Below, one piece after another: positions 18,753 to 49,049 of a stretch of DNA of 62,020 nt (positions within the stretch are counted from its first letter, which is position 1; each line of letters opens with the position of its first letter). The notes beneath the pieces are model-generated. The model was not told the origin of the DNA. It saw only the letters and a program-made list of their open reading frames with translations, and did not search any database. The stretch spans positions 64,001 to 126,020 of IMG/VR virus record IMGVR_UViG_3300023082_000008; one strand, 5' to 3'. Position numbers and translations under genes: made by a program. This DNA is from a virus (lineage: Duplodnaviria; Heunggongvirae; Uroviricota; Caudoviricetes).

Positions 18753-19193
18753 GTGAGAACAATCGCAAACAGAGTTTATACTCAGGAGGATATTATCCTC
18801 AATAATGAAGTAGATGACGTAACCGTTACGCTTCGTCCATTACCTATTGCACGTCTACGTGAATTTATGGGGCAATGGGAAAAGATGCAAGAGGTTGATA
18901 AAAAGGGTGAAGATGCGACAGAAGAAGAAATTTTTGCCGTTTATGTCAATTGCTGCGCGGTAGCGTTACGTAAGCAGTTATCAGATAAAGTCGGAGGACG
19001 AATCTATGATGACAAGCATGATTTTACCGCAGAATATATTGAACTTTTAGAAGACTATTTGGATTTGCAGTCAGTCATTAAGATTCTTGACATCTGCGGC
19101 GGTGTTAAGTTGGGAAACCCAAAATTGATGGAGACCCTGGACTCAATTCTGGAAGCGGAGACGGAAAGTCTGCCGGAGGATGGGACGAACTAG
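18753..19193 (+). CDS. tail assembly chaperone (G)
   Basis: Between major tail and tape measure genes. Contains the slippery heptamer. True start may be ATC 18762. Confidence 0.85.
   Translation: MRTIANRVYTQEDIILNNEVDDVTVTLRPLPIARLREFMGQWEKMQEVDKKGEDATEEEIFAVYVNCCAVALRKQLSDKVGGRIYDDKHDFTAEYIELLEDYLDLQSVIKILDICGGVKLGNPKLMETLDSILEAETESLPEDGTN
19112..19118 (+). promoter_or_regulatory. programmed -1 ribosomal frameshift site G GGA AAC
   Basis: X XXY YYZ heptamer in the G frame. The -1 frame is open from here through 19498. Confidence 0.85.
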
Positions 19194-19498
19194 ACATTGT
19201 GGCCCTTGAGCGTGAAGTGATGCTAACCGGTATGTTCAAAAATTTTGAAGAACTGGAAGAATCACTCACGGTCGAGGAACTACTTGAACTAGTAAAAGGT
19301 AGATCAGATGAAGAGTATAGAGGATTCAGATTTGCTGCATCATTAAAGGGCATTGACTTAGATGAAGAACACCGCAAGGAACAGGGTTCGTCATTTGATC
19401 AAATCAAAGCCCGAGCAGAAGCAAGACTAGCAGGAAAAAGCGAAGAAGAAATGTCGCTTGAAACGATGGGAATTTCCATCACTAAAATTGAGGAGTGA
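19112..19498 (+). CDS. tail assembly chaperone frameshift extension (T part of G-T)
   Basis: The -1 frame reads GKPKIDGDPGLNSGSGDGKSAGGWDELDIVALEREVMLTGMFKNFEELEESL... without a stop. Confidence 0.8.
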   Translation, partial: GKPKIDGDPGLNSGSGDGKSAGGWDELDIVALEREVMLTGMFKNFEELEESLTVEELLELVKGRSDEEYRGFRFAASLKGIDLDEEHRKEQGSSFDQIKARAEARLAGKSEEEMSLETMGISITKIEE

Positions 19499-19504
19499 AT
19501 TTGA

Positions 19505-22500
19505 ATTACTAACATTGACCTACGCTTTAGCGGTTATGCTGACTTTCGTCAGGTACACCGCGAAGTAACGAAATTGGAAGCGGAAGTTGCAGGCTTAAAT
19601 AAGCAACTACAGTCGCAAGCATTTACCAATACAGCCCGCACACAGGCAGCCCAGTTTGCTGAAACACGCAAGCAGGCAAATCTTATGCAGCGTACATGGT
19701 CCGATGCAGCGGCATCAACTGGTATGTTTGACGTTTCCAGTCGAAAAATTCGTTCTCACACGGACGAATGGGTCAAGAACGTACAGCGCCAGCGCCTTTC
19801 ACTCCGAGACCTGATGTCTGATATGGGCTCATACAAGGCTGCTAGAAATGAGCAAATGCGTATGCAGCAGATGTCAATTGCATCTTTTGCGTCTGATAAA
19901 AACGGTAATCCATTAGCGTCTATTGCTATTCCACGTACTGCTCTTCGAGACACAATGTCTCTTCGTCAAGAACTAGGGTTTGCTGCACATGCTGCGGAGT
20001 CCATCGGTGTGCAAATGATCAACTCCGGAAAGAACATGCAGTGGGCCGGTAGACAATTGAGTATGGGATTTACAGCCCCACTTCTAGCAGCAGGTGCGCT
20101 ATCTGCGAAGTTTGCTTTAGATGTAGATAAGCAACTTGTTAACGTTCAGAAGGTTTATGACACTTACGCACAAACGCAGGCTGGACAGGAGAAGGAACTT
20201 GTTAAACTACGTCAAGACTCCCTGAGCCTTGCTAAGCAAACAGCCAAGGAATACGGTATGGCTGCGACCGATACTATCAGCATTATGAGCCAGTTGGCCT
20301 CTGCCGGACAGCGTGGAGATGCGCTACAAAAGAACACTAAAGAAACAGCACGTTTTGCAACACTTGGTGATTTTGACTCTGATAGCGCTGTTAACGCTAC
20401 CCGTACGCTTAAGGCAGTATTTGGTATTCAAAACGAAGAACTAGCCAAGTCCGTTGATTTCATGAACAACATTGAAAACTCAACTTCTCTCACCATGTCT
20501 GACATGGCCGAGGCTATTCCTACTGCATCAGCAGCCGTAAAGAATCTAAATGGTTCATACAAGGACATGCTTATTCTTTTGACTGCCATGAAGGAGCGTG
20601 GATTTGATCCTGGTGAGTCTGCAAACGCCCTCAAGGCCGCAGGTACTCGTTTGATTCGTCCATCCGGCAAAGTACAAGAAGAATTCCAATCTTTGACGGG
20701 TCAATCAATTACAGAAATACGTGACCGTAATCAGGGCGATTTGATTAAGACTTTGCTAGACGTAGGTAAGGCAACTGAAAATCTAGGAACTGCGCAGAAG
20801 CAGCAGGCAAGAGCAGCATTGTTCGGAACTGAACAGGCAGCCCGTCTGGGCGGTGCAATGGATGGTTTGATTGCAGCACAATCAGGAGTTGGTGAAACTG
20901 CAAAGGCAATGGAAGTTGCGCAAATGTCTGCCGCAGAGAATGCTGCAATTGCTGAGAAGGAAATGCGTCGTCAAACAGAGTCACTTTCGGGCAAGTGGAA
21001 GCGCGCGGTAGAAACCATTAAGGTACAACTACAGGGAATGGGAGAAGCCTTCATCGGTGCGGGAACGACTGTACTGACGGTTCTATCTACCCTGATTGAT
21101 ATGTTTGGTAGCCTACCAGAAGGAGCCAAGAAAAGTCTCGTATTTGTAGCCCTTCTTGCCGCCGCTGCTGGTCCCTTGCTTATGCTCATCGGTCTATCTC
21201 GAAATCTTGGTGGACAAGTAATTAAGTTGGCCGCTATGATGGTTCAGGGTGCCACCCGATTCAAACTGATGACAACTGAGCAGACAGTTGCAGCCAAGGC
21301 TGCCGAATGGTCCACACAAGTATTGAAGAAGGAAGGCGACACGGTCCAGATTTTGACACAACAGTTGACTGGATTGAGCAACGCATTCCGCGAAGCAGCA
21401 ACCGCTCAGGGACTCTTGAAGCCAACGACAACCCCAGTTGCTACAGGTCCAGTCGGTAAGAACGGACGACCACTTGCTGGCGCAGCATTAGCATCACATA
21501 ATGCACGTCTAGAGCGCGATCAGTATGGCACAAATAACCGCACTGAGATTATGGGAATGCAGTCCCGTGAACCCGGTGGCGTGAACAACCCAGAACGTTT
21601 GGCAGCAGCCGCTGATGAAGAACGCGCCTTGAAGTCAGCCCGAATTCGAAGCGCTGTAAACAAGGCGTCAGGCGCAGCCGGTATCGCTGCAATGGCCACA
21701 ATGATGACAACCTCTAACGGTGTAGCAAACAACATCGCTAAGTGGGGAATGCTTGCGGCTCTAGTTGTTCCAGCAATGGCAGGACTGCCTGGACTCATTA
21801 AACAGGGCGCTACTCGAATGGGTGCAATCGGTGTTCTGTCTCGTGCTGCCATGAACCCATGGACTGCTGGTGTGGCTGTAGTCGGAGTAGGTTTGTACGC
21901 ATGGTACAAGCATATGAAAAAGGCTCGTCAGGAAATGGACGATATCTACAACAATTCTGACAAATTGGCAAAGATTCTAGGTGCAGACCCACAGAAGAAG
22001 GCTGGCCCTGGAGCCGGTATTGGGAATGAACTTTCCGAAGCCCAGAAAGAGCAGGTTAAACTTAACAAGGAAACCGAAAAGGCCGCTAATTTGGCAGACA
22101 AGTTAGAAAAGGCATATCCAAAGGTTGTTGAGCGAATCAAGGAAGCAAGTACTCCACAGGACAAGTACAATGAGGCTCTACGTCAGGGTCTCAAGGTAAT
22201 CACTGACTTGGGTCTAAAGGGAGATGAAGCACAAAAGGTCGTTAAGGGTTTCCTAGACGCTGCCGACAAGGCTGCCTCTGAGCCCATTATGCTAAGATAC
22301 GGAATCAACCTAGATGATGGAAAAGAAGTAGAAAAGGCTCTTAAGGATCAGAATGCTCGCATTGCTAATGAGTTGAAGATGGACCTAGACTCATTGCCTG
22401 AGCGCCGCAGAAATGCAGCCAGCAATGATGTTATTGCTCCTATTCCAAAGATCACCGACGAGGACAAGTCTAAGTTGAAAGCAATTGGAAAGAACATGGG

Positions 22501-25351
22501 AGCCATTTTGTATTCAAACATGGCAACAGAAGGTCAGGCCGGTATTGAAGTATTTGCTGGTCAAGAAAAGCAGTGGAAGAGTCTACAAGCCTCAATTGGT
22601 GACAACGAGGGTCTTCGTGAGTCTGCTATTCGATCAATGCTTAAGGGATACAACGTTACCGGCAAGGCTGCGGATCAAGCCATCGAAAAATTGAAAGATC
22701 AAAATGATGGACTCAAAGAAAGCGTTACACTTTACAACGCTCTTGAGGCTGCTGGCGTTAAGGCAAATGTGGCAGTTACTGCAAAGACTGAACTTGGAGT
22801 CAAGAATTATACCACTGATCAACAGGGCAAGATGCAGTCTCTTTACAACGATACCTTCATCAAGACTCAAGGTGATAATATTCAAAAGCAGGCTGCTGCT
22901 GTGGCAGCGGTACGCAAGGAAGTTGAAAAGGCCAATGGTGGATCGCTCAAATTCAAGAATATTTGGGGTCAAACTGCTAGCACGCTATCAAACGGCGTAA
23001 GCATTATGAACGCCCTGGGGGTTTCTGTTGCAAACTCTGCTGCTATGATGAGCAAACTCAAGAGTGCTGCTTCTGGTATTCAGTCGGGTGCTGTCGCAGA
23101 CGCAAATAGCGCTTTCCAGACTGGAACATCTGATTCAATGGCTGCTGGTCACACCGCCGCCCTGGAGGGCATCGAGAAGGCCGGAGAGGCGTCTTCTGAG
23201 GCCTTTGAAAAGAAGTCTCAGGCATTGTCCGATCGACAGGCTGCACGCTCTCAGGCGCTAGAAGATAAGCAGGCAAAGCGTGCCGCTACCCTTGAGCGCG
23301 CCCAAGATCGTGTACAGAAGAAGTTTGAAGATCGCTGGACCAAGCGCAAGAAGATTCTAGAAGACGAAGAAGCAGCCCGTCAAAAGGCATTCGATGCTGA
23401 AAAGACTCGAATCGAACGAATGAAGGAACTCAACAATGACAAGGTTGACCTCAAGGTTGCACTTGATACTGGTCAACTAGATCAGGCTGCAAAGATTCAA
23501 GGAGAAATGACTGCAAAGCAGCAGACATGGGCTCTTGAAGATTCACAATCAGCGACCGGCGATCAGTTTACAGCAGCCAAGGAAGCCCTCGACGCCCAAG
23601 AAGCCAAGGAAAAAGACAAGTTGGATCGTACGCTCAAGATTCAGCAAGAGGCTCTTGCAAAGCGCGAGCAGGCAGAAGACCGCGCTCTTGAAAAGCGTAA
23701 TCAAAATGAGCAAAGAGGGCTAGATGCTCAAAAGGCAGCGGCAGCGAAGTCTGTTGCAATCGCAACTGAGGCTGAAAACAAGAAGTATGCTGCTCAGAAG
23801 AAGGCGGTAGACGACGGTATTGCATGGATCATTTCTAAAAACCCACAAACACAAGCACAACTTGATGATCTTGTAACTAAGGCCCAAGATCGTTTTGGTA
23901 TTATGGGCAACTACCTACGAGAGAATGCAGACACATGGGGCAAGAATATGGTCGACTCCATGGCTAAGAGAACCCTTGAAGCGTACAAGGAAATTACGGG
24001 TGCAGACTTCGTAAACAGTGGAGAAAAGATTTCAGCAGACTTCATGAAGGGTATGACTGGTGGTCAGATTACAACTGCTCAATTGATTACTTACATGCAA
24101 ACAGGAAAGTTGCCAGCAGCAGCACAGCCAGGTGGTAACCAGGGAAGTCCAGACGCTAAGCGTAAGTCGGGCAAGAGTAATCCAGACGACGGACCAGCAC
24201 CAAAGGCCGGACGTCACAAGGGCGGTCCAGTTGGACCGGTGAATCTTAGTGATGGAGACCGCACTGGATATCCAGCCAATGCCGAAAAGTATCCAAGCGA
24301 GAAATGGATTCTAGCCAAGAATGACGAATATGTTATTAGTGGTAAGGCTCATCGTGAAATTGGAACATCTGCTCTTGATGCGATGAACGGTGGTAAGGGA
24401 GCCCTTGCACGTCCTCGCCCTGCTGCCAATGGGGGTTTGATGGGCGGACGACACAGTGGTGGTGGAGTTGGCGGTAAGAGCATTAGCGCCGGACTCACAG
24501 GAATTCCACAGGCAGCCATGGGTAGAACCACGGCGTATTCACTTATTACGGGAGCGTTGGACCTAGCCAATGCCAACATGAAGGCTAAGCAGGATGAAAT
24601 CAACGCGGCAGCGGCAGCGAAGGCTGCCGCCAAGACCGGTAAGGCTGGTCCCGGAGGCGGTACAGTAGGAGGTGCTCCGATGGGGGCCGTTGATCCAAAT
24701 GGCTGGAACCGACCATGGAAGAAGGCTTATGGCGTTCAGAGCGGACACGACTTCCCAGTTCCATCAAACACTCCAATCTATGCGCCTCATTCTGGTATTG
24801 CACGCGGACACGATATTCCTGGATTCGAGCCACGCCAGAGGTCTGGTGGAAACGGTTATAGATCATACGGTCGTATCATGGAAGTAACCGGTGGTGGAGC
24901 AAACATCATGTTTGCCCACATGAACTCGCGAGCATTTGACGGACCCAAGAAGGTTTCCGCTGGTGACTTCCTAGGTCTTTCAGGTGTAACGGGTAATTCC
25001 AGCGGTCCTCACGTTCACATGGAGTTGAATCATGGTGGAGATAATTCAGGAGTTGGTGGATTCTTTGCAGCGCGAGGAGTCAAGTTGAAAACGGGCGGAA
25101 CAATTCGCTATGACAATACACCTGCTGTACTGCACGCTGACGAAAGAGTACTTAAGGCAACCAATACTCAAAAGTTGGATGAGGGTATTGACAGAATTGC
25201 AACAGGTGACGTTGGCGGGTATACTATTAATCAGATGACAATTCAGGTTGATGGCACAAATATTGATCCAAAGGACATTCCAGCCCTCGCCAAGGAAATC
25301 AAAAAGGAGTTTGAGAAGGACGATTCACGCCATTCGCGTCGTCCAAAGTAA
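19505..25351 (+). CDS. tape measure protein with C-terminal M23 peptidase domain
   Basis: ~1950 aa Ala-rich helical protein with TP901-like core. M23 motifs HDFPVPSNTPIYAP, FAHM and GNSSGPHVHME. Frame is open from ATT 19505; the ORF track starts at TTG 19574. Confidence 0.92.
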   Translation: MTNIDLRFSGYADFRQVHREVTKLEAEVAGLNKQLQSQAFTNTARTQAAQFAETRKQANLMQRTWSDAAASTGMFDVSSRKIRSHTDEWVKNVQRQRLSLRDLMSDMGSYKAARNEQMRMQQMSIASFASDKNGNPLASIAIPRTALRDTMSLRQELGFAAHAAESIGVQMINSGKNMQWAGRQLSMGFTAPLLAAGALSAKFALDVDKQLVNVQKVYDTYAQTQAGQEKELVKLRQDSLSLAKQTAKEYGMAATDTISIMSQLASAGQRGDALQKNTKETARFATLGDFDSDSAVNATRTLKAVFGIQNEELAKSVDFMNNIENSTSLTMSDMAEAIPTASAAVKNLNGSYKDMLILLTAMKERGFDPGESANALKAAGTRLIRPSGKVQEEFQSLTGQSITEIRDRNQGDLIKTLLDVGKATENLGTAQKQQARAALFGTEQAARLGGAMDGLIAAQSGVGETAKAMEVAQMSAAENAAIAEKEMRRQTESLSGKWKRAVETIKVQLQGMGEAFIGAGTTVLTVLSTLIDMFGSLPEGAKKSLVFVALLAAAAGPLLMLIGLSRNLGGQVIKLAAMMVQGATRFKLMTTEQTVAAKAAEWSTQVLKKEGDTVQILTQQLTGLSNAFREAATAQGLLKPTTTPVATGPVGKNGRPLAGAALASHNARLERDQYGTNNRTEIMGMQSREPGGVNNPERLAAAADEERALKSARIRSAVNKASGAAGIAAMATMMTTSNGVANNIAKWGMLAALVVPAMAGLPGLIKQGATRMGAIGVLSRAAMNPWTAGVAVVGVGLYAWYKHMKKARQEMDDIYNNSDKLAKILGADPQKKAGPGAGIGNELSEAQKEQVKLNKETEKAANLADKLEKAYPKVVERIKEASTPQDKYNEALRQGLKVITDLGLKGDEAQKVVKGFLDAADKAASEPIMLRYGINLDDGKEVEKALKDQNARIANELKMDLDSLPERRRNAASNDVIAPIPKITDEDKSKLKAIGKNMGAILYSNMATEGQAGIEVFAGQEKQWKSLQASIGDNEGLRESAIRSMLKGYNVTGKAADQAIEKLKDQNDGLKESVTLYNALEAAGVKANVAVTAKTELGVKNYTTDQQGKMQSLYNDTFIKTQGDNIQKQAAAVAAVRKEVEKANGGSLKFKNIWGQTASTLSNGVSIMNALGVSVANSAAMMSKLKSAASGIQSGAVADANSAFQTGTSDSMAAGHTAALEGIEKAGEASSEAFEKKSQALSDRQAARSQALEDKQAKRAATLERAQDRVQKKFEDRWTKRKKILEDEEAARQKAFDAEKTRIERMKELNNDKVDLKVALDTGQLDQAAKIQGEMTAKQQTWALEDSQSATGDQFTAAKEALDAQEAKEKDKLDRTLKIQQEALAKREQAEDRALEKRNQNEQRGLDAQKAAAAKSVAIATEAENKKYAAQKKAVDDGIAWIISKNPQTQAQLDDLVTKAQDRFGIMGNYLRENADTWGKNMVDSMAKRTLEAYKEITGADFVNSGEKISADFMKGMTGGQITTAQLITYMQTGKLPAAAQPGGNQGSPDAKRKSGKSNPDDGPAPKAGRHKGGPVGPVNLSDGDRTGYPANAEKYPSEKWILAKNDEYVISGKAHREIGTSALDAMNGGKGALARPRPAANGGLMGGRHSGGGVGGKSISAGLTGIPQAAMGRTTAYSLITGALDLANANMKAKQDEINAAAAAKAAAKTGKAGPGGGTVGGAPMGAVDPNGWNRPWKKAYGVQSGHDFPVPSNTPIYAPHSGIARGHDIPGFEPRQRSGGNGYRSYGRIMEVTGGGANIMFAHMNSRAFDGPKKVSAGDFLGLSGVTGNSSGPHVHMELNHGGDNSGVGGFFAARGVKLKTGGTIRYDNTPAVLHADERVLKATNTQKLDEGIDRIATGDVGGYTINQMTIQVDGTNIDPKDIPALAKEIKKEFEKDDSRHSRRPK

Positions 25352-25357
25352 TCATAT

Positions 25358-25759
25358 ATGGGTAATTACAAAACCAATCAAATAATGTATTGGGGCACGA
25401 GTAAGGTTACTGACCACAACCGTGCCCCTCTGCAAGTTTCTTATGAGTTCATTGAGCGCAAGTCTCGCATGGCCAAAGGCACTCTTAGAAAGTACATTGT
25501 TGCGAAGAAACGCACATGGTCAACTTCATGGGATATGTTACCAACATATCTAGCGGAAGTAGTCGACGGCGGTATGACAGCAGCAGCGATGGAAACTTTT
25601 GTAAACAATAATCCTGGTGCATTTACTCTAACACTTAGAGATGGACAAGGTAACCAAGAAACGACCAAAGCAATGATTACAGACTTTTCCAAAGAAATTC
25701 AAATTCGTGGAACTATCAATGATTTTTGGTCTGTATCAGTAACACTAGAGGAGGTATAA
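25358..25759 (+). CDS. distal tail (Dit)-like minor tail protein
   Basis: Small beta-rich ORF directly after the tape measure, ending WSVSVTLEEV. Confidence 0.6.
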   Translation: MGNYKTNQIMYWGTSKVTDHNRAPLQVSYEFIERKSRMAKGTLRKYIVAKKRTWSTSWDMLPTYLAEVVDGGMTAAAMETFVNNNPGAFTLTLRDGQGNQETTKAMITDFSKEIQIRGTINDFWSVSVTLEEV

Positions 25760-31993: not shown

Positions 31994-34900
31994 CACGCAT
32001 TCTACTTCGCGATCTAGCACCCGGAACTAAGTATCAAATTCAACTTCGCAGCAAGTATGGAAACAATACTTCTGACTGGTCACCAGTTTATGACTTCACA
32101 ACTAATCTCGACGCGATTCTACCAACGCAGCCTACAAACATCATGTGGAACTCTGTTGGTCGTTCGTTCCTAGCAACTTGGGAGGCACCTACTGTCGATA
32201 CAACCGGAGGCGTCCTTTACAATCTAGGTGGGTACCGTGTTCGCATCAGTCACGTACCCTCCAACAAGAGCGTTACCTATGTCATCAATGACACTCGATT
32301 CGACTTCACGTATGAAATGAACGAGGCAGCCTTCGGAAAGGCTCGCTCTCCATTGAACTTTGAAGTACAGTCGCTCAGCGCGACTAATCCGCTAAACAAC
32401 TCTCAATTTACCTCTCCTGTAACTGGTCAAAACCCAATTCCAACTGCACCGGTGATGGACCCTGCACGTACAGCAATTGATATGGTTGAATTTTCGTGGT
32501 CAGCAGCACCGGACCTTGATCTTGTTGGGTACAATGTTTACGCTTCTCAGACCAATGGATTTTCTCCCGGACCCACCAACTTACGATCATTTGTAAACGG
32601 CTTACAGTACAACCTCGTAAGCCCAAGCACTGCTCCTTGGTATGTACACGTGCGTTCTGTTGATATTTTTGGTCAAGAATCAATTTCGTCTCAGGTTTCT
32701 GGAACAATTACGTCGAGTGCTAAGGATACGACTGCTCCAGCGAATGCAACTGCACTAGCAGCAACCACTGCATACGATACTACGCGCAATAGATCATACA
32801 TCACTACTACCTGGACCAAGTCAACTGATGACGGCGCGGGAGCAAGAGATGTCCAGCAGTACATCATTCGCTACAGTTCGAACGGTGGCACAAACTGGAA
32901 TTACCTATACGTTCCAAGCAACACCACTACAGCGCGTCTTGACGTTGATCCTGCTACGGCCTACACAATTCAGATTGCGACGCAGGATTATTCTGGAAAT
33001 ACCAGTGTTTTCTTGGCAACTTCCCCTACCTCAATTACTTCTGCGGCTGACACTACCGCTCCAAGCACTCCATCCGCGCCGGTAGCAACTGGTGGAGTCT
33101 TCCAAGTATTCGTAAACCAAGCAAACACCAAGGCAGCCGGTGGAGCGATGGAATCAGATGTTGACCACTATGACGTATACATGTCAACGACAAACAACTT
33201 TACAACCTACGACGCCACAACTCTTAAGGGATCAATTCAGGTTGGCACAGTAATCGGCGCGGTATTTACAATTCCCGCAGCAACGACAAACACCACATGG
33301 TACGTAAAGACTGTTGCTGTAGACAAGTCTAACCTCCGTTCACCAGCATCAGCACAGGCAACGGCAACGGTATCACTAATTAACTCAACGTCTATTGACA
33401 ACGCAATCAACCTTGCTATCAGCAACGCACAGACCACTGCAACAAATGCTGGCAACGCTGCGGCGGTAGCAATCAAGTCATACGTCAATGAGTATTCAGT
33501 AAACTCTTCTGAGACAGTGGCCCCAACGACAGGCTGGTCAACGTCGACGCCAACCCGCACACCGGGCTCATTTATTTGGTTCCGTACAACTGTTACCCTG
33601 AATAACAACACGACCTCTACGACCAACCCTGCACTTCTGACGGGTAACGCAGGCTCAACTGGTTCACAGGGTATTCCCGGAACTCCTGGCTCCAACGGCC
33701 AGAGTCTTTATACATGGCTCAAGTACGCAGATACTCCTACAACGGGAATGAGTGATGATCCAACTGGTAAAACATATATGGGTATTGCTTATAACAAGTC
33801 AACTGCTACAGAGTCAAGCACATACACTGATTATGAGTGGACCCTTATCAAGGGCGCTGACGGCACAGACGGTAAGGGAATCTCCAACACAGTTGTTACA
33901 TATCAGATAGCATCGTCTGGAACAGTAGCCCCAACTGGTACTTGGAATGCAGCCCCAACTGCTACAACTCCCGGCCAGTTCCTTTGGACACGTACAGTAA
34001 CCACATACACTGATGCTACCACGACCACGGCGTATGCAGTTTCTGCTCACGGTGCTACTGGTTCAACTGGTAATACAGGTGCTACGGGTACTGGTATTTC
34101 AGGTACTTCCGTTATGTACCAAGTAGGAAATAGTGGAACTACAGCCCCAACAGGCACATGGTCTGCTGCTCCTGTAGCGACAACCACAGGTCAGTTCCTC
34201 TGGACCCGCACGATTACTACATACACTGACGCGACCACCGCAACGGCATACTCTGTATCCGCACATGGTGGTACTGGTGCTGCCGGAAAGGGCATTTCTT
34301 CAACAGCAGTTACCTATCAAACCGCAACCAGCGGAACTGTCGCACCTACAGGAACGTGGTCAGCGAGTCCAACGGCTACGACCACGGGTCAATTCTTGTG
34401 GGTCCGCACCATTACGACTTACACGGATGCTTCAACCGTTACCGCATATGCTGTTTCAGCACACGGCGCGACAGGTAGTACAGGAAGCACGGGAGCAGCC
34501 GGTAGAGGCGTTAGCGGAACGACAGTAACTTACCAAGTAGGAAATAGTGGAACAGTAGAGCCTACTGGTACATGGTCAACTTCTCTTGTTGCTACGACAG
34601 CACCCGGACAGTTCTTGTGGACACGAACGATTACCACATACACGGATTCCCTCAACCCAACGACGGCATACGCTGTTTCGGCGCACGGTTCAACTGGCCC
34701 ACAGGGTAACCAAGGTATCCAGGGTCCTATTGGTCCAAATGGTCTACCAACCTACACATGGATCAAGTATGGTACTTCTGCAACTGGTGCTGGATTTGCC
34801 GATTTGCCAGATGGTAAGACATACATCGGTATTGCATACAACAAGACAACTCAGACTGAGTCTGAAACTCCATCCGATTACGAATGGTCATTGATCCAAG

Positions 34901-41136: not shown

Positions 41137-41500
41137 GGACATTACCGATCTTCCTACGGGCACTGTTATCGAAACAGTGAATGGCGATTACTTTTACATT
41201 AAAGGCAGCAAAAAATTTCGAATTATTTCTGATCGCATTCTGTTCTCATGGTCGTTTCCCAGAACTGTATACGTTACTCAAGCGTGTGCAGATCGCTACA
41301 AAACATTTGGTAGATTGGGTTTTCGAGAAGGCACCATTATTCGCGATATTACCACTTCTGCAATATACTTGATTAGTGAGAACAAAAAGCGTTTGGTCAC
41401 AACACCAGACGCTCTTGATAATTTAGGCGTCGCCACAGACGGGATAATGCTCGTCTCACCCGAAGAGGCCGGTATTCATGAAGGAGGAGAAGACATATAG
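41072..41500 (+). CDS. hypothetical protein with two internally similar halves
   Basis: LPTGTVIETVNGDYFYIKGSKKFRI and FREGTIIRDITTSAIYLISENKKRLV resemble each other. Confidence 0.7.
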   Translation: MRKMFRKKKFQAVKLPTIRQPKDITDLPTGTVIETVNGDYFYIKGSKKFRIISDRILFSWSFPRTVYVTQACADRYKTFGRLGFREGTIIRDITTSAIYLISENKKRLVTTPDALDNLGVATDGIMLVSPEEAGIHEGGEDI

Positions 41501-41514
41501 CAAACTATATTAAA

Positions 41515-41937
41515 GTGACATGGAACAATGGAGAAACACTGTCTCGTGACTCACTGACTACCCTGTCCAACAACCAGGACTGGCTCAAGTCAAACATGGC
41601 CAAAACAAGATACATTGGAAGCCCAGGATTTCCACAAAGAGATGGAGCAAAAATTCTTGCGGGTATTTCTTATTTTCCCGGCACCTCGGGATCGTCACTG
41701 TTTTATATTCCCGTGAGTTTTGGTGACTATTTTAGCCCTGACTGTTACCCCGTGGTGACAACAGCGTTGCGCTCGGTTGGTGAAGACAGACTGTTCCACA
41801 GAATTTATGCGCTTGATGGTTCACACTGGATTACTTCCAGTGGTTTTATGATTGCTGGTTACGCTTACACTAACCCGGGCTGGGACAAAAACACTGTTGA
41901 CAACCTACACGTAGACTACATTGCCGTTGGATATTAA
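41515..41937 (+). CDS. hypothetical tail-associated protein
   Basis: Follows the fibre genes and ends VDYIAVGY, like fibre-associated beta domains. Confidence 0.6.
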   Translation: MTWNNGETLSRDSLTTLSNNQDWLKSNMAKTRYIGSPGFPQRDGAKILAGISYFPGTSGSSLFYIPVSFGDYFSPDCYPVVTTALRSVGEDRLFHRIYALDGSHWITSSGFMIAGYAYTNPGWDKNTVDNLHVDYIAVGY

Positions 41938-41959
41938 ATCGTAGTATAATTGTCTTAGC

Positions 41960-42310
41960 ATGCCTAAGACAAAGATTGCAAAAGTTAAGACGGCCAAGGC
42001 CGTTAAAATGTATTCGGCAAAACGCAGAGCGATTTATCATGCGGGTGAACAGATTGACCCACTTGTTGTTTTTGAAAGAGACAACTGGTTGTGTGGAATT
42101 TGCGGTAACATAATTAACCGCCGCCTGCATCACCCCGCCTGGGCCTGTGCTACCATTGATCACGTGGTTCCGATTAGCAAGGCCCTGGAATTGGGCTGGC
42201 CGGTTAACATGATCCACACGTATGATAATGTGCAGGCAGCGCACCGTCGCTGCAACGAACTCAAGTCGAACACCATTGACGGGACCTTGGTCCCCGTGGT
42301 AGACTTGTAG
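41960..42310 (+). CDS. HNH endonuclease
   Basis: ERDNWLCGICG...TIDHVVPISK...NVQAAHRRCNELK. Own promoter TATAAT at 41945-41950. Confidence 0.9.
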   Translation: MPKTKIAKVKTAKAVKMYSAKRRAIYHAGEQIDPLVVFERDNWLCGICGNIINRRLHHPAWACATIDHVVPISKALELGWPVNMIHTYDNVQAAHRRCNELKSNTIDGTLVPVVDL

Positions 42311-42330
42311 TCGACAACCGGAAGGTATAC

Positions 42331-43137
42331 ATGCCAGACACTATGCACTGGGCATTCGTGGGGGACCTACAAATTCCCTACCATGACCCAAGAGCCGTAA
42401 CCCTGTGGATGGACGTCATGAAATGGTGGCGACCAAAGGCTATTGATTTCACAGGCGACATTGATGATCAACTGTGTTACAGTTCTTTCTCGGACGGTAC
42501 CACGGATGAATTCTTCTCTATCATCAAAAAGGCTGAGAACGATTCTCCTATGCCGTATGTAAAAGAGCAGGCACACGAAGCCAAGAAGTTTTACGAGGAC
42601 GTGCGCGGTAGCCACAAGAAGGCTGATCTACACTCTTCTTTAGGCAATCATGACGTGCGCATCAACAAGTACATCGACAAGAAAGCGCCCGGCTATCTTG
42701 ATCAAATCACACCAGAGAATATGTGGGGGTTGGATTCACTTGGAATTTCATGGAGAACCTACGACGATGTACCTTTTCAACGATATGGAGACATATACGT
42801 CCACCATGGAGCAACTACGACAACTACAGGACTGGCTGTCAAATCCGATATTGAATCATACAACATCTCGCTCGTCCGTGGTCACGACCATCGAGGTGGA
42901 GTAGTCTACAAGACTTATCCGATGACCGGTAGGGTATTGCAGGGCATGGGCACAGGCCACATGTGCAACCCTAAGGCGTATGGTCTACGGTACACTATTA
43001 ATCCTTCATGGGAACTTGGGTTTGGTATTGGTCACGTTTACGACAACAGTCAAGGCATCGAAGAAGTCAAGTTGGACTTTGTCCGTATTACCCCAGACTA
43101 TACTTGTGTAGTTGATGGAAAACTTTTTAGGGGTTAG
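42331..43137 (+). CDS. calcineurin-like metallophosphoesterase
   Basis: GDLQIPYHD, GDIDD, LGNHD, VHHG and GHDH motifs. Confidence 0.88.
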   Translation: MPDTMHWAFVGDLQIPYHDPRAVTLWMDVMKWWRPKAIDFTGDIDDQLCYSSFSDGTTDEFFSIIKKAENDSPMPYVKEQAHEAKKFYEDVRGSHKKADLHSSLGNHDVRINKYIDKKAPGYLDQITPENMWGLDSLGISWRTYDDVPFQRYGDIYVHHGATTTTTGLAVKSDIESYNISLVRGHDHRGGVVYKTYPMTGRVLQGMGTGHMCNPKAYGLRYTINPSWELGFGIGHVYDNSQGIEEVKLDFVRITPDYTCVVDGKLFRG

Positions 43138-43140
43138 GCA

Positions 43141-43196
43141 ATAGATTTTCCTCCATTGTATAATGGGAGTATCCCAATGCATTGGAGGAAAACTAT
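43141..43196 (+). promoter_or_regulatory. SD-sequestering hairpin containing an internal promoter (holin leader)
   Basis: TTTTCCTCCA (43146-43155) pairs perfectly with TGGAGGAAAA (43183-43192). TATAAT at 43159-43164 lies inside the 5' arm. Confidence 0.75.
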
Positions 43197-43415
43197 ATGT
43201 GGACAAAGTTGTTCTGGAAAGACGCGGTAGAGCGCGTCATTTCAACCGCTGCGCAGGCAGCACTCGGCGTTATTGTAGCCGGTGGTATTGTAGGTTTAGC
43301 GACCTCCGCAGGTTGGATCATCATCGGCTCAGCAGCCGCAGCATCCTTGCTCAAGGCTCTTATCGCTGTGACCGTAGCAAGCAACGATATTTCACCGGCC
43401 TCACTGGCTAAGTAA
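43197..43415 (+). CDS. holin (r1t-like)
   Basis: MWTKLFWKDAVERVISTAAQAALGV... with two hydrophobic segments. SD GGAGG 8 nt before ATG 43197. Confidence 0.85.
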   Translation: MWTKLFWKDAVERVISTAAQAALGVIVAGGIVGLATSAGWIIIGSAAAASLLKALIAVTVASNDISPASLAK

Positions 43416-43416
43416 T

Positions 43417-43659
43417 ATGTTGACGTGTCAGAGGTGCCGAGGCAGAGTGTTCCTCGACCGTGATATAATGGACCATGACGGATACGAAACCGTCTGTGTT
43501 AATTGCGGCGAGAGGACCTTTGTCTCGGCCCGAAGCAAACTAGGGAATTGGATAACCAAGACAGAATATGAAGCGCGGAGACCGAAAGCAAAAAATACAT
43601 CGCGACAACGTTCCAGTGTACGTTATCCTGAACAAGAAATTGTACAAGGTACTGAGTAA
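43417..43659 (+). CDS. small zinc-ribbon protein
   Basis: CQRCRGRVFLDR...CVNCG. Confidence 0.7.
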   Translation: MLTCQRCRGRVFLDRDIMDHDGYETVCVNCGERTFVSARSKLGNWITKTEYEARRPKAKNTSRQRSSVRYPEQEIVQGTE

Positions 43660-44083
43660 GACTAAATCGACTGATCGCGCGGTACTTTGGAATTTTGAAG
43701 AAAAGACTCGTGAGGTGCACAGTTACGTAGCAGTCGCGAGGTATGGGGAAAAGGCCTACTCCCCGTATGAGATTGGAAATTTGTTAAACCGATCAAAGTA
43801 CACAATTAAGGCACTGTTCCACGAACTACCGGAACCATACCGTATTTATGCATTTACATCTGGCGAGCCCATTGGCCGCAGATGGGATGCTGATGGTGTC
43901 ATGGAGATTAGAGACGTACTCGCATCTAAACACTATGGTCACCCTAGAAACGATGGGGAAATTGTCCCCATGGCACTACCATCGCGCACAGAACTGCGCG
44001 CTATGCTCAATCAGGAGGCCGTCTACTATGTTAAGACAGAAAATGGAAGCGTTATTCCAACATGGAAAGCACACGATTTCTAA
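43568..44083 (+). CDS. probable DNA-binding protein
   Basis: AYSPYEIGNLLNRSKYTI helix-turn-helix-like segment. Basic composition. Confidence 0.55.
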   Translation: MKRGDRKQKIHRDNVPVYVILNKKLYKVLSKTKSTDRAVLWNFEEKTREVHSYVAVARYGEKAYSPYEIGNLLNRSKYTIKALFHELPEPYRIYAFTSGEPIGRRWDADGVMEIRDVLASKHYGHPRNDGEIVPMALPSRTELRAMLNQEAVYYVKTENGSVIPTWKAHDF

Positions 44084-44351
44084 ATCACGAGGCCTTAGGT
44101 ATCTTCCTCTTGATTACCAGGGAGGATACGTTTTTTCTTCGGGCGTTGCATACGGCCAGTTAAATCAAGTGCTTGATCTTGCAGCCAAAAAGCCTAGAAA
44201 AGCACCCGCTTTGCTGATGGTAGCGGAGGGTTGGTTAAAGGTAATCGAGAAACTAGATGAAGAGGGCGAATCGCCCAGACAGCCAATTGGTTTTCAGGTA
44301 AACGCACATCGAGAGGAGGAAACAGATGACAGCAACCAGAGTCAAGAGTGA
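44043..44351 (+). CDS. hypothetical protein (start uncertain)
   Basis: The 3' part of track ORF 43848-44351 fills the gap; its 5' part shadows the upstream gene. Confidence 0.55.
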   Translation: MEALFQHGKHTISKSRGLRYLPLDYQGGYVFSSGVAYGQLNQVLDLAAKKPRKAPALLMVAEGWLKVIEKLDEEGESPRQPIGFQVNAHREEETDDSNQSQE

Positions 44352-44550
44352 ATTGTCATACAAGTTAAATATTGGAAACTATGAGTCTTTCGACATTCTT
44401 GTAGGAATTGAGGCTGATGCACAGGATGGAGAGTCCGTGGTAGACGCTGAAAAGCGTGTCTCAGACCTCGTAGAAGCGATCCTGATGGAGCGCGTAACAG
44501 CAGCGACCAATCAGTTCATCCACAAAAAGAAGGCACCGGTGGAGGGATGA
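44326..44550 (+). CDS. hypothetical protein
   Basis: SD GAGGAGG. LSYKLNIGNYESFDI motif. Confidence 0.75.
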   Translation: MTATRVKSELSYKLNIGNYESFDILVGIEADAQDGESVVDAEKRVSDLVEAILMERVTAATNQFIHKKKAPVEG

Positions 44551-44918
44551 CACCTACACAAGAGGCCCACATGCTCACCACAGGTTACATCAACCTATGG
44601 AAAGCAAAGTACCCAAACGCAGGACAGCCCAACTTCAATCGAAATAAGGCCACTTTTGGCTGGAAGACGATGAAGATGGACATGTCCGTGGACGAAATCA
44701 AGGAACTGGTGGAGTTCTTTTTCACCATTCCAGACGCCAAGCAGCACGACCTGTCTAATTTCCACTGGAACTATGACCAGATTGTTGAGCGCTTTGCAGA
44801 AGTAAAGAAAGATAGAGCGCACCGTAAAGTGCTAGCCAAGCAGTCAGAACAACGAGTTAAGGAGCATGAGGAGAGACTTGCACGAATTAAAAGCGATCAG
44901 CGCAGTTCTGATCAATAA
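44547..44918 (+). CDS. hypothetical protein directly upstream of helicase
   Basis: Overlap-coupled ORF of 123 aa. Confidence 0.7.
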   Translation: MTPTQEAHMLTTGYINLWKAKYPNAGQPNFNRNKATFGWKTMKMDMSVDEIKELVEFFFTIPDAKQHDLSNFHWNYDQIVERFAEVKKDRAHRKVLAKQSEQRVKEHEERLARIKSDQRSSDQ

Positions 44919-46086
44919 AGACGCAGAAACCCTCTTTGGTTCCAATCTGGATGACTTTTTTGTAGAGTATGGTGACGTGTGGGGCGGTATTAAGGAATAC
45001 TACAACCGCCACCGCGAGATGCCAACCCCCGAGGTTGTTCATGAAATGTATGGACATTTCAAGGCAGCCGACGTAACGGGCGCGGTAGAGTTTTACATAG
45101 ATTCCCTAAGAGCAAACTTCCTAAAGAACAAGGGCAAAAACATTGCTATGGTGGCTGATGGTCTTTTCGAGCAGGCACCAGCAGAAGAAGTTATCGACGC
45201 TCTAATGGCCAAGTTGCAGGAATTGCGATCATATTCGATCACAGCAACAGATCACAACATTATGGACTTTGACGCAGCAGAAGAACGTTACGAGCAAGTT
45301 CGTGCCAAGGTAGCAGCCATGAACGGTGTTCCCGGTATTCCTTCGGGAGTTAAGACAATTGACGCTTCATACCCTACCGGCTGGGCTGGTGGAGACTTGA
45401 TTATTCTGCTGGGTTACACCGGTAGAAAAAAGTCATTCTTTTCAGCCCTGCTAGCCTGTGAGGCATTCCAGCGTGGCTATAAGCCGATGTACGTGTCTCT
45501 TGAAATGAAGGCTGACAAGGTACAGGATCGTATTTTCACGATCATGGGATCGGGCATGTTCCAAAACTCTGGGCTGTCATTGGGTGATATTCGCAAAGAT
45601 TCATTCGATACTTTCCGTGAACAGTGGGAGGGCAAGGGAGAGTTCATCGTTGTTAACAGCGACGGACGATCAGCCATTACTCCAAACGTGCTACAAGCCA
45701 AGATTGACCAGCACAAGCCTTCCATGCTTATTCTTGACTATGCTCAGTTGATGAGCGATAATGGTCAGAATGACAATATGACAATCAAGATGATGAACCT
45801 GTCAGTTCAACTTAAGTCTTTGGCTGTGGCGAACGACATTCCCATCATTCTGATTTCATCTGCAACACCAGACGGTAAGGTCGGAGACGACCCACCAACG
45901 ATTGAGCAGGTTGCATGGTCAAAGCAGTTGGCGTTTGACGCCGACCTAGCCTTCGCGGTACATGGTAGCGACGAAGGCGACATTGTTAGAATTGTGTGTA
46001 GAAAGAACAGAAACGGCCCACAGTTCGACCTTAGTCTTGACTGGGATATCAACAATGGTATTTGGAAGGAATTCTATTTGTCATGA
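44878..46086 (+). CDS. dnaB: DnaB-like replicative helicase
   Basis: Walker A variant GYTGRKKS, YVSLEM, LILDYAQLM, KNRNGP. Likely TTG start at 44878 after GAGGAG. Confidence 0.9.
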   Translation: MHELKAISAVLINKDAETLFGSNLDDFFVEYGDVWGGIKEYYNRHREMPTPEVVHEMYGHFKAADVTGAVEFYIDSLRANFLKNKGKNIAMVADGLFEQAPAEEVIDALMAKLQELRSYSITATDHNIMDFDAAEERYEQVRAKVAAMNGVPGIPSGVKTIDASYPTGWAGGDLIILLGYTGRKKSFFSALLACEAFQRGYKPMYVSLEMKADKVQDRIFTIMGSGMFQNSGLSLGDIRKDSFDTFREQWEGKGEFIVVNSDGRSAITPNVLQAKIDQHKPSMLILDYAQLMSDNGQNDNMTIKMMNLSVQLKSLAVANDIPIILISSATPDGKVGDDPPTIEQVAWSKQLAFDADLAFAVHGSDEGDIVRIVCRKNRNGPQFDLSLDWDINNGIWKEFYLS

Positions 46087-46388
46087 GTTATATTCATAAA
46101 GATGTGCACAAGATCACCGTGGATGGAGACATCGCAGAGATGGACATGGAGCGCCACAAGTCAGAACTTATCAGGACAATGCAGGACCAGTTGAGGGTAG
46201 ATGGTCACATTCCTCTGCTTGACATGGACCCTCAGTTCAGTGTAGGCTATGACTTTGAGCGTGACGTGCGCACCTTCACGTTGAGCGTGTTTGGAATTAA
46301 GGGAGATAATCCGTGGGACTACAGCGGGGTCTTGAGTGGCCGAGCGATCAAGAAGTCTACAACGAATCCCAAATCGCCGCAGTCCTAG
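46083..46388 (+). CDS. hypothetical protein between helicase and primase
   Basis: ATGA overlap with the helicase stop. Confidence 0.7.
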   Translation: MSYIHKDVHKITVDGDIAEMDMERHKSELIRTMQDQLRVDGHIPLLDMDPQFSVGYDFERDVRTFTLSVFGIKGDNPWDYSGVLSGRAIKKSTTNPKSPQS

Positions 46389-47362
46389 AAGAAATTGGTG
46401 TGGAGGTAAAGGGAGAGACCGAGAACGTTTTCTTGTGTCTCTGCCCTTTCCACAACAACTTCCATTCGCCTGCCATGGTTGTCAGTAAGTTCAAGGGATT
46501 GTACTACTGCAACAATGGTGGCTGTGGAGCGCGCGGTAATCTCAAGAAACTCATTGCAGAACGTTCTAACATGGACGAGTTTGCAGTTAACCGTATGCTC
46601 AACAAGTACAAGGAAGACGTTGACTTCCTAGAAGCAAGACGTCAAAGAGTAGAGGATTTCAAGTTTGAGGCTTATACCACGCACGATCTATCCCTACTCC
46701 GCTCTGCGTTCCCTTGTTCTAGAGCCCACGAATACATGCGTGGACGTGGTTTTGAAGACGACACCCTCAGGTCGTTCGATTGTGGGTACTCCGAGGATGA
46801 CCCAAGAGACATGGTCGTTGTGCCGGTACACGATCCAGACGGCATGGCAATCGGATTCGTTGGTCGTTCCGTGGGGGACAAAAGATTTCAGAATAGTGAC
46901 AATCTACCAAAGTCAAAAACCCTGTTCAATTACCATAACGCTAAACGAACGGGCGGTACAGTCGTTGTTGTGGAAGCGTCGTTTGACACCATGGCGGTAC
47001 ATCAAGCAGGATACCCAAACGTTGTGGCTACACTGGGATCAAGCCTCTCTAACAACCAAAGAGAAATCCTAGGAAGAACATTTGATACCATCATTGTTTT
47101 AACTGACTGGGACAAGGCTGGTCGTAAACTGGGCGAGCAGATTGAGTCCAAGTTCCGTCACAAGACGGTCAAGTGGGCTGCCATGGAGAACGGTTACTAC
47201 CCCCTCCTGCCGTCTGGGAAGATGTGTAAGGACGCCGCAGAAATGTTAGAGGAATTGGGTCCAGAGGCAATTAGACAGGTGCTTAGAAACGCCATGTCGC
47301 CCATCAACTACCATGCCATGATTGACGAGGATGCTGAAAAGCATGGCTACAGCATGGTATAA
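46313..47362 (+). CDS. dnaG: DNA primase (zinc finger plus TOPRIM)
   Basis: CPFH...CNNGGC zinc finger, VVVEASFD, LTDWDKAG. Confidence 0.9.
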   Translation: MGLQRGLEWPSDQEVYNESQIAAVLEEIGVEVKGETENVFLCLCPFHNNFHSPAMVVSKFKGLYYCNNGGCGARGNLKKLIAERSNMDEFAVNRMLNKYKEDVDFLEARRQRVEDFKFEAYTTHDLSLLRSAFPCSRAHEYMRGRGFEDDTLRSFDCGYSEDDPRDMVVVPVHDPDGMAIGFVGRSVGDKRFQNSDNLPKSKTLFNYHNAKRTGGTVVVVEASFDTMAVHQAGYPNVVATLGSSLSNNQREILGRTFDTIIVLTDWDKAGRKLGEQIESKFRHKTVKWAAMENGYYPLLPSGKMCKDAAEMLEELGPEAIRQVLRNAMSPINYHAMIDEDAEKHGYSMV

Positions 47363-47370
47363 TTGAGGTT

Positions 47371-47886
47371 ATGGTAGGACTTGCAGATTTCCAAAAGAGA
47401 ATGGGCACCACAACGGTGCGACCATCATGGCTCACTATCAAAAATGGTGAATCAAAGCAGTTGACGTTCCTCGGAGAGCCGAAGGATTTTAAGATTGTCG
47501 TAGAGCACGTTTCGCCAGAAGACTGGAAAAAGCGCGGTATCTGTACATACAATACCGGCCACTGCTTCGCCTGTGAGCAGAGAGCGTATGGATGGAATCA
47601 GAACATCAGAATCTACATTCCGGTGCTCATGAATCAGCGTCCATACGTGATCGCACAGGGCATTGGAGCCAATTCAGTATTGCACGATTTGGTGCAGGCC
47701 AAGCGAGAACGTGGTATAATTAGAGATGTAGTATTCGATGTGTCACGTAAAGGTGAGGGCAAGAGAAGCGCATATAGCGCAGTTCCCACAGACACACCCG
47801 CACCGCTATACAAGACACAAGTTGACATTGAATCATTGTTAAACAACATCACATACGACAAACAAAAAACATATTACAAGGAGTAA
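47371..47886 (+). CDS. single-stranded DNA-binding-like protein, Cys-containing copy
   Basis: gp32-like pattern (RIYIPVL...SRKGEG...Y) with CTYNTGHCFAC. Alignable by eye to the next gene. Confidence 0.6.
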   Translation: MVGLADFQKRMGTTTVRPSWLTIKNGESKQLTFLGEPKDFKIVVEHVSPEDWKKRGICTYNTGHCFACEQRAYGWNQNIRIYIPVLMNQRPYVIAQGIGANSVLHDLVQAKRERGIIRDVVFDVSRKGEGKRSAYSAVPTDTPAPLYKTQVDIESLLNNITYDKQKTYYKE

Positions 47887-47892
47887 CACAGA

Positions 47893-48687
47893 ATGCCATT
47901 TGAAGGACTAAGCGGTTTCCGCGAGCAGCAGGAGAAGAAAACGGTTGAAGAATCACCGTTTTTTAAGTTGACAGAAAAGGGCCAGAAGGCTCTTATTCGT
48001 CCACTAGTTGAGTTGGATAAGGAATCCATCAACTACTCAGAGGGTCGCCTCCCCCTCTTCACACAGGAGTTTGCAAATCCTCAGAAGTTCTGGCTGTCTA
48101 TTGAAGACACCCGTACTGATGAGGACCAGTCTGTCGGCTGGGAAATGATCGCAAAGTACGGCTGGTACGTACAGGACGCATCAAAGATTGATCCGAAGAA
48201 GAAGCAGCATTCGGACGGTAAGTTCAACTGGAACCCACAGCAGTTCGTTTACCTGCCTGTTCTAGTAAAGGACAAGCCAAGCGATGACCCTCGCGTCGAG
48301 GTAATGCGCGTTAAGTACCGTGGTGGTGAGGCTACAACCCTTATCGACTACGCAAACAGCGAACGTGAGTTCGACCCGGACGGTAATTCGTCTGATCCAT
48401 TCAAGTCAATTACTGACCGCTGGTGGAACTACAGCCGTAACAACGAGAGCGGTTTTGCAGTGCGCTACAACCTATCACCAAAGGATGCGTCGGATGACGT
48501 AAACGTATTGGATTTTGAGGTTCCTGACCTTAGCCAGTTCGTCAAGAGTATTCCCTATGGTGCTGATGGTTCCGAACAGCGTGCTTACCTACAGGTTGCG
48601 TCCAACACGGAGCCTCAGGCAGAGCAGGCTCCGATTGTAGCCGACACAGGCACGTCAAGTTCTGCGATTACCAAGGCAAACTGGTAA
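47893..48687 (+). CDS. single-stranded DNA-binding-like protein with low-complexity C-terminal tail
   Basis: Paralog of the preceding gene. Tail ends in W. Strong SD and downstream terminator. Confidence 0.65.
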   Translation: MPFEGLSGFREQQEKKTVEESPFFKLTEKGQKALIRPLVELDKESINYSEGRLPLFTQEFANPQKFWLSIEDTRTDEDQSVGWEMIAKYGWYVQDASKIDPKKKQHSDGKFNWNPQQFVYLPVLVKDKPSDDPRVEVMRVKYRGGEATTLIDYANSEREFDPDGNSSDPFKSITDRWWNYSRNNESGFAVRYNLSPKDASDDVNVLDFEVPDLSQFVKSIPYGADGSEQRAYLQVASNTEPQAEQAPIVADTGTSSSAITKANW

Positions 48688-48702
48688 TCTATTGAGCCAG
48701 TT

Positions 48703-48736
48703 AGTCCCAGCCGCCTTAACCCCGGCTGGGGCTTTC
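48703..48736 (+). terminator. intrinsic terminator
   Basis: AGTCCCAGCCG / CGGCTGGGGCT stem followed by TTCT. Confidence 0.8.
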
Positions 48737-48743
48737 TGATTTT

Positions 48744-49049
48744 ATGGATAACTTTTGGCAAGAATATTCAGCCTATTTGAAGAGCCCAACATGGAAATTG
48801 GTTCGTGAAAGGCTCATGGCCGTGCACGGACACCGATGCTGGTGCTGCCGGGTCACATATGGTACCATGAATGTGCACCACTTGACCTATGCACGCTGGC
48901 GCAACCCCATGGTGGGCGATGTGCGCGTGCTGTGCAAGGCCTGCCACGCAGACGTTACGGCCCTACAGAGGGCGCGCGGTAAATCAACCGACCCAGTCAT
49001 CGTGCTGGGTATTCACAGACAACAATGCAAGAGGAGAAAGAGCCGTTAA
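48744..49049 (+). CDS. small HNH endonuclease
   Basis: YLKSPTWKLVR...CWCC...VHHLTY...LCKACH. Confidence 0.85.
   Translation: MDNFWQEYSAYLKSPTWKLVRERLMAVHGHRCWCCRVTYGTMNVHHLTYARWRNPMVGDVRVLCKACHADVTALQRARGKSTDPVIVLGIHRQQCKRRKSR

Follow-up and report, generated by a model that had tools for sequence, protein, structure and literature searches.

Candidate near-cognate start codons behind strong Shine-Dalgarno elements in the tape measure, dnaE, and tail chaperone genes of a metagenomic actinophage

The bacterial gene for initiation factor 3 (IF3), infC, starts at AUU, and other rare bacterial AUU, AUC, AUA, and CUG starts are known. In the tail module of phage lambda (G, G-T, and H), the H gene has an ordinary start. 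The sigR gene of Streptomyces starts at GTC behind AGGAGGTG, with an extended ribosome binding site (RBS), and is repressed by IF3 (Feeney et al. 2017, PMC5472188). In E. coli, the output from AUA, AUC, and AUU is 1 to 2% of that from AUG, or 0.02 to 3% across constructs, and other codons give 0.01 to 1% (10.1101/063800). Here we describe a stretch of DNA of 62,020 nucleotides from a soil phage (the window), bases 64001-126020 of the 126,020-bp IMG/VR contig IMGVR_UViG_3300023082_000008 (completeness estimate, 97%), in which the genes for the tape measure protein, DNA polymerase III alpha (dnaE), and a tail assembly chaperone (G) have Shine-Dalgarno (SD) elements that point at ATT, GTT, and ATC, respectively. 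A sequence-only reading of the window had singled out these AUU, GUU, and AUC codons; we found all three in place, at 19505, 49045, and 18762, with SD elements in the top 1 to 3% of in-frame positions, and the comparison of start codons across relatives that it had called for put each at an orthologous start position. We assign a probability of about 0.7 to the reading that they are genuine near-cognate initiation codons, in which a weak start combined with a strong, well-spaced SD element acts as a hard-wired attenuator. Initiator tRNA would read the near-cognate codon inefficiently, the strong SD element would partly compensate, and the weak starts would probably keep these proteins scarce. 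The weak start codon as an attenuator is already known; what appears new is the gene concerned, how widely the trait is conserved, the GUU case, and the combination with frameshift control. Literature searches returned no report of noncanonical tape measure starts in phages, and we know of no documented GUU start codon.

To judge by its sequence, the contig is an actinophage, a distant relative of the Streptomyces phages of the Stanwilliamsviridae that belongs to no named genus. It shares with them synteny, protein similarity, a size of about 125 to 135 kb, many tRNAs, and low G+C: 48 open reading frame (ORF) pairs are collinear with Annadreamy at 23 to 64% protein identity, the G+C content of the window is 0.41 to 0.52, and 36 tRNA genes lie on the other half of the contig. 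Nearly all genes in the window are on the + strand. Relatives were recovered by alignment query, from a protein database, and by metagenome scan, and those closer than the Stanwilliamsviridae were found only in metagenomes. They include a sister genome, 126,438 bp long and recovered from a different sample (loci L039, L050, and L131; 91 to 92% identity in DnaE and tape measure), a second metagenomic lineage (L040 to L045; 74 to 83%), and contig L036 (77%). Single-protein scans of viral contigs with the chaperone or the tape measure gave no close relatives.

The start region of the tape measure gene is laid out as follows.

19505..25351 (+), tape measure protein gene; starts at ATT 19505, the first codon after an in-frame TGA (19502-19504)
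19490..19498 (+), SD element of the tape measure gene, overlapping the stop of the upstream T frame; free energy (dG), -8.1
19574..19576 (+), TTG, the first canonical codon of the tape measure frame, 23 codons in; rejected as the start, without an SD element (dG, -1.5)

The SD element contains GGAG at 19492-19495, which leaves a spacer of 9 nt to ATT 19505, and in tblastn searches the similarity to tape measures of Streptomyces phages begins at residue 1 counted from this codon. ATT directly after TGA recurs in five clade members, namely, the window, L131, L036, L044, and L045. In these five, the T frame and the tape measure frame are the same, split by a conserved TGA-NNN-TGA just before ATT (19496-19507 in the window). 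We rejected TTG 19574 as the start, the 23 codons upstream of it being homologous to tape measure N termini and changing mostly at third positions, with no SD element in front of it; within the clade, third positions account for 11 of the 18 variable sites in codons 2 to 23.

The aligned codon is ATA in 12 of 12 Stanwilliamsviridae checked, from both subfamilies (Annadreamy, LukeCage, Wakanda, StarPlatinum, Francob, Moab, Daubenski, Tomas, Wofford, Yaboi, TunaTartare, and Faust), with an SD-like element and a 9-nt spacer. In the same 12 phages the frame opens 2 to 15 codons 5' of ATA with no canonical codon in between, and the conserved N-terminal motif of the tape measure lies 30 to 57 codons 5' of the annotated start in every one of the GenBank records. 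The annotated proteins would be too short by that length because gene callers and curators accept ATG, GTG, and TTG only, and metagenomic tape measure gene calls show the same shortening. In the GenBank records, the coding sequence between the chaperone T gene and the annotated tape measure start is left as a noncoding gap.

A DNA-level census of 36 related loci, extended by a profile-based IMG/VR scan in which some entries are duplicates of isolates, gave ATA in 24, ATT in 6, ATC in 1, ACG in 1, ATG in 2, TTG in 1, and GTG in 1, and an SD-like element lies about 9 nt 5' of the start position in all of them. At the near-cognate loci (the window plus 31 related ones), the frame opens 0 to 15 codons upstream without a canonical codon there, and the next canonical codon comes 16 to 55 codons downstream, in 32 of 32 cases for both. 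Dozens of tape measures from the wider family have Met at exactly this residue (M-x-N-I-x-V-R). The ACG and ATC codons represent single lineages (L052, position 1195, and L057, position 1201, respectively); both have an SD-like element 9 nt upstream, and their frames are closed 6 codons upstream in L052 and 2 codons upstream in L057.

These comparative data are strong evidence that translation would start at the ATT 19505 codon, and comparison shows the putative near-cognate start of the tape measure to be an ancient, selected, family-wide trait. The initiation codon would differ by lineage, with AUA in the Stanwilliamsviridae, AUU in the clade of the window, AUC or ACG in single lineages, and AUG, GUG, or UUG in others. 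The weak codon has long been retained, although a single mutation would give ATG. In this the tape measure gene is like infC and its class, whose AUH codons have an SD element, work at low efficiency, are discriminated against by IF3, and stay weak across relatives; unlike them, the tape measure is a structural protein with no evident autoregulation, and its codon drifts among AUA, AUU, AUC, and ACG. A natural series at one homologous site, of AUA, AUU, AUC, ACG, and GUU, together with AUG, GUG, and UUG, in culturable phages and with a host for which IF3 mutants and the GTC start of sigR are available, would make start selection by IF3 testable in infected cells.

For dnaE, the proposed start lies at the end of an upstream gene.

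49045..52326 (+), dnaE (DNA polymerase III alpha); proposed start GTT 49045
49031..49036 (+), SD core of dnaE, GAGGAG, 8 nt before GTT; dG, -9.4; aligns with AGGAG of BillNye and Stigma
48744..49049 (+), HNH-like gene; its stop, TAA 49047-49049, overlaps the dnaE start

The PHP motif of the polymerase comes 5 codons after GTT 49045. At the GTT position, orthologs start with ATG or TTG in the IMG/VR relatives and, with the SD spacing unchanged, with TTG or ATG in Streptomyces phages; in BillNye and Stigma the codon is TTG, spaced from AGGAG as in the window. L040 to L043 have TTG within a TTGA overlap with the HNH stop (relatives with TTGA are 71 to 83% identical), and the sole difference there between L040 and the window is the missing G of TTGA. 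By this comparison, the ancestral dnaE had a UUG start overlapping the UGA stop of the HNH gene, and deletion of the single G created the UAA stop and placed GUU in frame, with the SD element unchanged. Comparison shows GTT to be recent and lineage specific, derived by deletion in an ancestral TTGA. The sister genome (91% identical) also has GTT with the overlapping TAA. Its dnaE frame opens 19 codons before the PHP motif, and the first canonical codon comes 8 codons past the start of the motif (LHAHS). Since the sister has no canonical dnaE start before the PHP motif, the lineage has persisted without one, and an essential polymerase gene seems to have outlasted its canonical start.

Two in-frame codons of the window, ATG 48889 and ATG 48919, were rejected as dnaE starts; they lie inside the HNH gene, have no or weak SD elements, are missing from the sister, and would add 42 to 52 residues translated from the HNH gene out of its own frame. 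The out-of-frame ATG 49025 was likewise rejected as the head of a frameshifted dnaE, having no SD element and a frame of 21 codons. With sigR, the closest precedent for GTT, the window shares a G-U-pyrimidine start in the probable host group, a strong compensating SD element, a role in stoichiometry, and misannotation to a nearby canonical codon. However, sigR encodes a regulator of the host and has another isoform that starts at an upstream ATG, whereas here GTT belongs to a phage dnaE and reflects a recent deletion. In terms of stop/start coupling (ATGA, TTGA), the dnaE relatives have TTGA, and the window keeps the overlap as GTTAA without a canonical start. The HNH-like gene is directly 5' of dnaE in six related genomes (the window and L039 to L043), with its stop always overlapping the dnaE start, and HNH endonucleases are annotated upstream of dnaE in BillNye, Stigma, and Annadreamy. 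It has less the look of a mobile homing endonuclease than of a fixed partner coupled to dnaE in translation.

The third case, the chaperone, heads the tail module in which the tape measure gene lies.

18762..19193 (+), tail assembly chaperone G; proposed start ATC 18762, rival GTG 18753
18745..18756 (+), SD element of the chaperone gene, holding the in-frame GTG 18753; dG, -9.1 for ATC 18762 and -1.6 for GTG 18753
18727..18732 (+), putative -10-like hexamer TAGAAT, about 20 nt before the SD-led start; not called by the strict scan
18668..18712 (+), hairpin with a U-rich tail, a terminator-like attenuator directly after the major tail protein gene; -31.2 kcal/mol, z -7.45
18024-18650, major tail protein gene, immediately before the hairpin
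19112..19124 (+), two adjacent -1 slippery heptamers in the G frame, GGGAAAC then CCCAAAA; only the second is kept in L036

The 10-nt SD-like element ends 5 nt before ATC 18762, and ATC aligns with the TTG, TTG, and ATG starts of the Annadreamy, LukeCage, and Wakanda chaperones and with ATG of L045. A 21-nt block that includes the SD element and ATC is identical in L036 despite different flanks, and the sister (L131) also has ATC, behind an SD element nearer to the consensus. GTG 18753 is conserved in all three genomes with ATC (the window, L036, and the sister) and is out of frame in L045; it has 0 to 1 nt between the SD core and the codon and a background SD energy. Comparison shows a recent, lineage-specific history, in which AUG changed to AUC and a 2-nt length change put the SD-internal GUG into frame. 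We lean modestly toward ATC as the chaperone start, with GTG 18753 as a serious, if less probable, contender. A -10-like hexamer equivalent to that of the window, TACAAT, is present in L036 and L045. The hairpin was not called by a simple terminator scan, and no Rfam family was found in the window from 18000 to 50000.

The T frame is -1 relative to G and ends at TGA 19496-19498, 6 nt before ATT 19505. Homology in the T frame sets in 15 codons ahead of the first canonical codon there, and the chaperone coding sequences of relatives are annotated as joined; a heptamer near the end of G followed by a startless, open -1 T frame is the arrangement of a programmed -1 frameshift that gives G and GT. 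Under the attenuator reading, the tape measure would lie below two further dose-reducing devices, the hairpin after the major tail gene and the -1 frameshift of G/GT, and its weak start would be an additional layer over terminator and frameshift in setting the stoichiometry of tail assembly. A start of about 1% would fit a protein with a few copies per virion beside hundreds of tail tube subunits, a ratio that is our own reckoning. The gene order, the slippery heptamer, the -1 T frame, and the dosing of assembly factors at the level of translation are all like the lambda tail module. Unlike in lambda, attenuation would gain an extra layer from a near-cognate start of the tape measure gene and probably from one of G as well.

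A fourth case may be present between these two regions.

41482..41499 (+), candidate fourth case, with AGGAGG, a 9-nt spacer, and ATA 41497, which overlaps the upstream stop TAG 41498-41500; dG, -12.4, top 0.03%

ATA-GCA at 41497 aligns with ATG-GCT of Annadreamy gene 44, and ATA is kept in the sister. When 48 annotated Annadreamy starts were mapped onto the window, only 18762, 19505, 49045, and 41491/41497 were without a nearby canonical codon, and an ORF-level comparison agreed. Near-cognate starts would then be used by 3 to 4 of about 190 genes here and by one in Annadreamy, the tape measure, and the genome-wide use proposed in the sequence-only reading did not hold up after two systematic screens. 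Its description of the affected genes as low-dose and essential stands insofar as their products are plausibly needed in small amounts. The three cases also differ in history, the tape measure being ancient and family-wide and dnaE and the chaperone recent and lineage specific. Conserved coding sequence upstream of all canonical codons, in a frame closed shortly before it, was found for the tape measure in the window and 31 related loci and for dnaE in the sister (the upstream ATG of the window is not conserved). It was not found in strict form for the chaperone or for 41497, which have a canonical codon at a distance of 3 codons upstream and of 6 codons downstream, respectively.

Other candidates from the gap screen, at genome positions 22531, 23858, 24643, 43964, 45491, 54255, and 56246, at window positions 4023, 42280, and 31969, and in one minus-strand ORF, were rejected; all are ordinary starts at ATG or GTG, each served by an SD element or promoter of its own. 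GTT 58552, which aligns with the start of the Annadreamy dNMP kinase, was also rejected, since ATG 58492, which overlaps the stop upstream, yields a plausible extension of the N terminus. A genome scan based on the RBS only gave too much noise, given the abundance of SD-like strings within genes and the 45% of confident starts that lack an SD element. ATT 55261 is in frame 4 to 5 nt after GGAGG, 7 codons inside gene 55240, and may be an internal or alternative start or due to chance; that gene has a GTGA overlap start, with GTG 55240 and TTG 55249 available.

The SD energies at 18762, 19505, and 49045 rank in the top 1.6%, 2.4%, and 1.3%, respectively, of 3,117 internal in-frame codons. With ATA 41497 included, the four sites span the top 0.03 to 2.4% and are stronger than about 88% of confident canonical starts, and the spacers are 5 to 9 nt. 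The canonical rivals have SD energies at the 23rd to 92nd percentile, which is background level.

Several points weigh against genuine initiation at these codons. Initiation there is itself something that we infer from the sequences, and the genomes of the window's clade are all metagenomic, so that their viability is assumed. Conservation of GTT is known from two closely related genomes only, and GUU has two mismatches to AUG; the E. coli data predict a very weak start for an essential polymerase. In the chaperone gene, a GTG is in frame 9 nt (3 codons) upstream of ATC, within the SD element, and may be the real start. A start-capable codon also lies 6 codons after ATA 41497 (GTG 41515, ATG in the sister) and may likewise be the real one.

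The alternative that survives best is that the near-cognate codons would be used by termination-reinitiation only, by ribosomes finishing the T frame, the HNH gene, or the gene before 41497. Translation of the upstream frame, and not free binding of 30S subunits, would then set the output, which makes this a variant of, and compatible with, the attenuator reading. The T stop lies 2 to 22 nt before the tape measure start in all relatives read, the stops before dnaE (in six genomes) and at ATA 41497 (TAG 41498-41500) overlap the start codon, and reinitiation in E. coli uses initiator tRNA and is IF3 sensitive (PMC2268962). However, the chaperone ATC has no upstream frame and follows a hairpin and a promoter-like element. 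Tight packing is found equally at canonical starts in the family, so that proximity does not discriminate, and the conserved strong SD element would serve de novo initiation too. Reinitiation as the exclusive route is possible but rather doubtful.

It is unlikely that the canonical alternatives, GTG 18753, ATG 48889/48919, TTG 19574, and GTG 41515, are the real starts throughout. All are in frame, GTG 18753 entered the frame in the same lineage that lost ATG, and 41515 stays start capable, as GTG in the window and ATG in the sister. Nevertheless, the SD energies of these rivals are at background, the 23 tape measure codons before TTG 19574 are conserved coding sequence, and the dnaE ATG codons do not occur in the sister. 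GTG 41515 has no SD element.

A slightly less likely explanation than this would be globally relaxed start discrimination, or an infection that lowers IF3 activity and switches on the near-cognate set at a defined stage. A single branch saw the loss of two canonical starts, and the lineage of the window has 3 to 4 such genes versus one in Annadreamy. Leaderless mRNAs, which are IF3 sensitive according to the literature, appear to be frequent, and relatives carry many tRNAs and, in some of them, ribosomal-protein-like genes (PMC12509530). On the other hand, only about 2% of genes are affected, and a gene-specific explanation is adequate for each. The genome has no homologue of IF3, S21, or L12 (PF00707, PF05198, PF01165, and PF00542), and the exploitation of IF3 by the phage, raised in the sequence-only reading, therefore stays speculative. 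The single tRNA-Met is an ordinary, family-conserved one, 85 to 88% identical to the annotated tRNA-Met of Streptomyces phages. It was rejected as initiator-like; ARAGORN gave a 1:72 mismatch, but the Rfam alignment starts one base later with 1:72 paired. The Ile tRNAs have no G-C run in the anticodon stem. Two unusual ARAGORN calls outside the window are a tRNA-Ile (UAU) with an 8-bp acceptor stem at genome positions 4727-4804 and a tRNA-Ile (GAU) with a long variable arm at 34044-34124.

IF3 would be expected to limit the near-cognate starts here, by analogy with Streptomyces sigR (PMC5472188), but nothing in the genome points to manipulation of IF3 by the phage. An extension of this, which we consider improbable, is that start codon stringency would be a regulated variable: IF3 that becomes limiting, or is altered by an unrecognised phage factor, would boost a near-cognate regulon (the tape measure, the chaperone, dnaE, and gene 41497) together with leaderless mRNAs. 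If true, the stringency shift would be a translational timer, and the lineage of the window would be recruiting further genes to it.

Recoding is very improbable; it would take the form of read-through of TGA-NNN-TGA from T into the tape measure, or of a +1 shift at the HNH stop, producing an HNH-DnaE fusion. T and the tape measure do share one frame with two TGA codons between them in all five clade members, and the SD-like element before the HNH stop is superficially like that of prfB. In the Stanwilliamsviridae, however, the T and tape measure frames differ and their distances vary, and the arrangement of SD element, 9 nt, and ATA is constant; frame relations that vary around a fixed SD-to-start geometry make read-through or frameshift fusions unlikely. 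Almost no product would be expected from two consecutive stops after a prior -1 frameshift. As for the HNH stop, its P-site codon CGU has no way of re-pairing in the +1 frame, the SD element is spaced by 7 nt and not 3, and the relatives simply use TTG for dnaE. Assembly or sequencing errors, or defective genomes, to which we give next to no weight although only the third base separates the three codons from ATG or GTG and the contig comes from a metagenome, are excluded by the recurrence of the codons in assemblies made independently from other samples (L131, L039, and L050 of the sister and L036, L044, and L045) and by ATA in GenBank isolates, as the sequence-only reading had argued in calling a single sequence error insufficient.

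Leaderless AUG starts, also proposed in that reading, are indeed common: TANNNT lies 5 to 9 nt upstream of 26 of 109 confident starts, versus 5.2% of internal canonical codons. Across the genome, a -10-like hexamer ends exactly 6 nt before many ATG starts, frequently with a preceding TG and a TTGAC-like -35 element (for example, at window positions 9770, 14228, 15214, 30876, 40888, and 56312), and ATG starts just after such hexamers look like those of leaderless mRNAs. The same arrangement is conserved in Annadreamy at the HNH gene that matches window position 57186.

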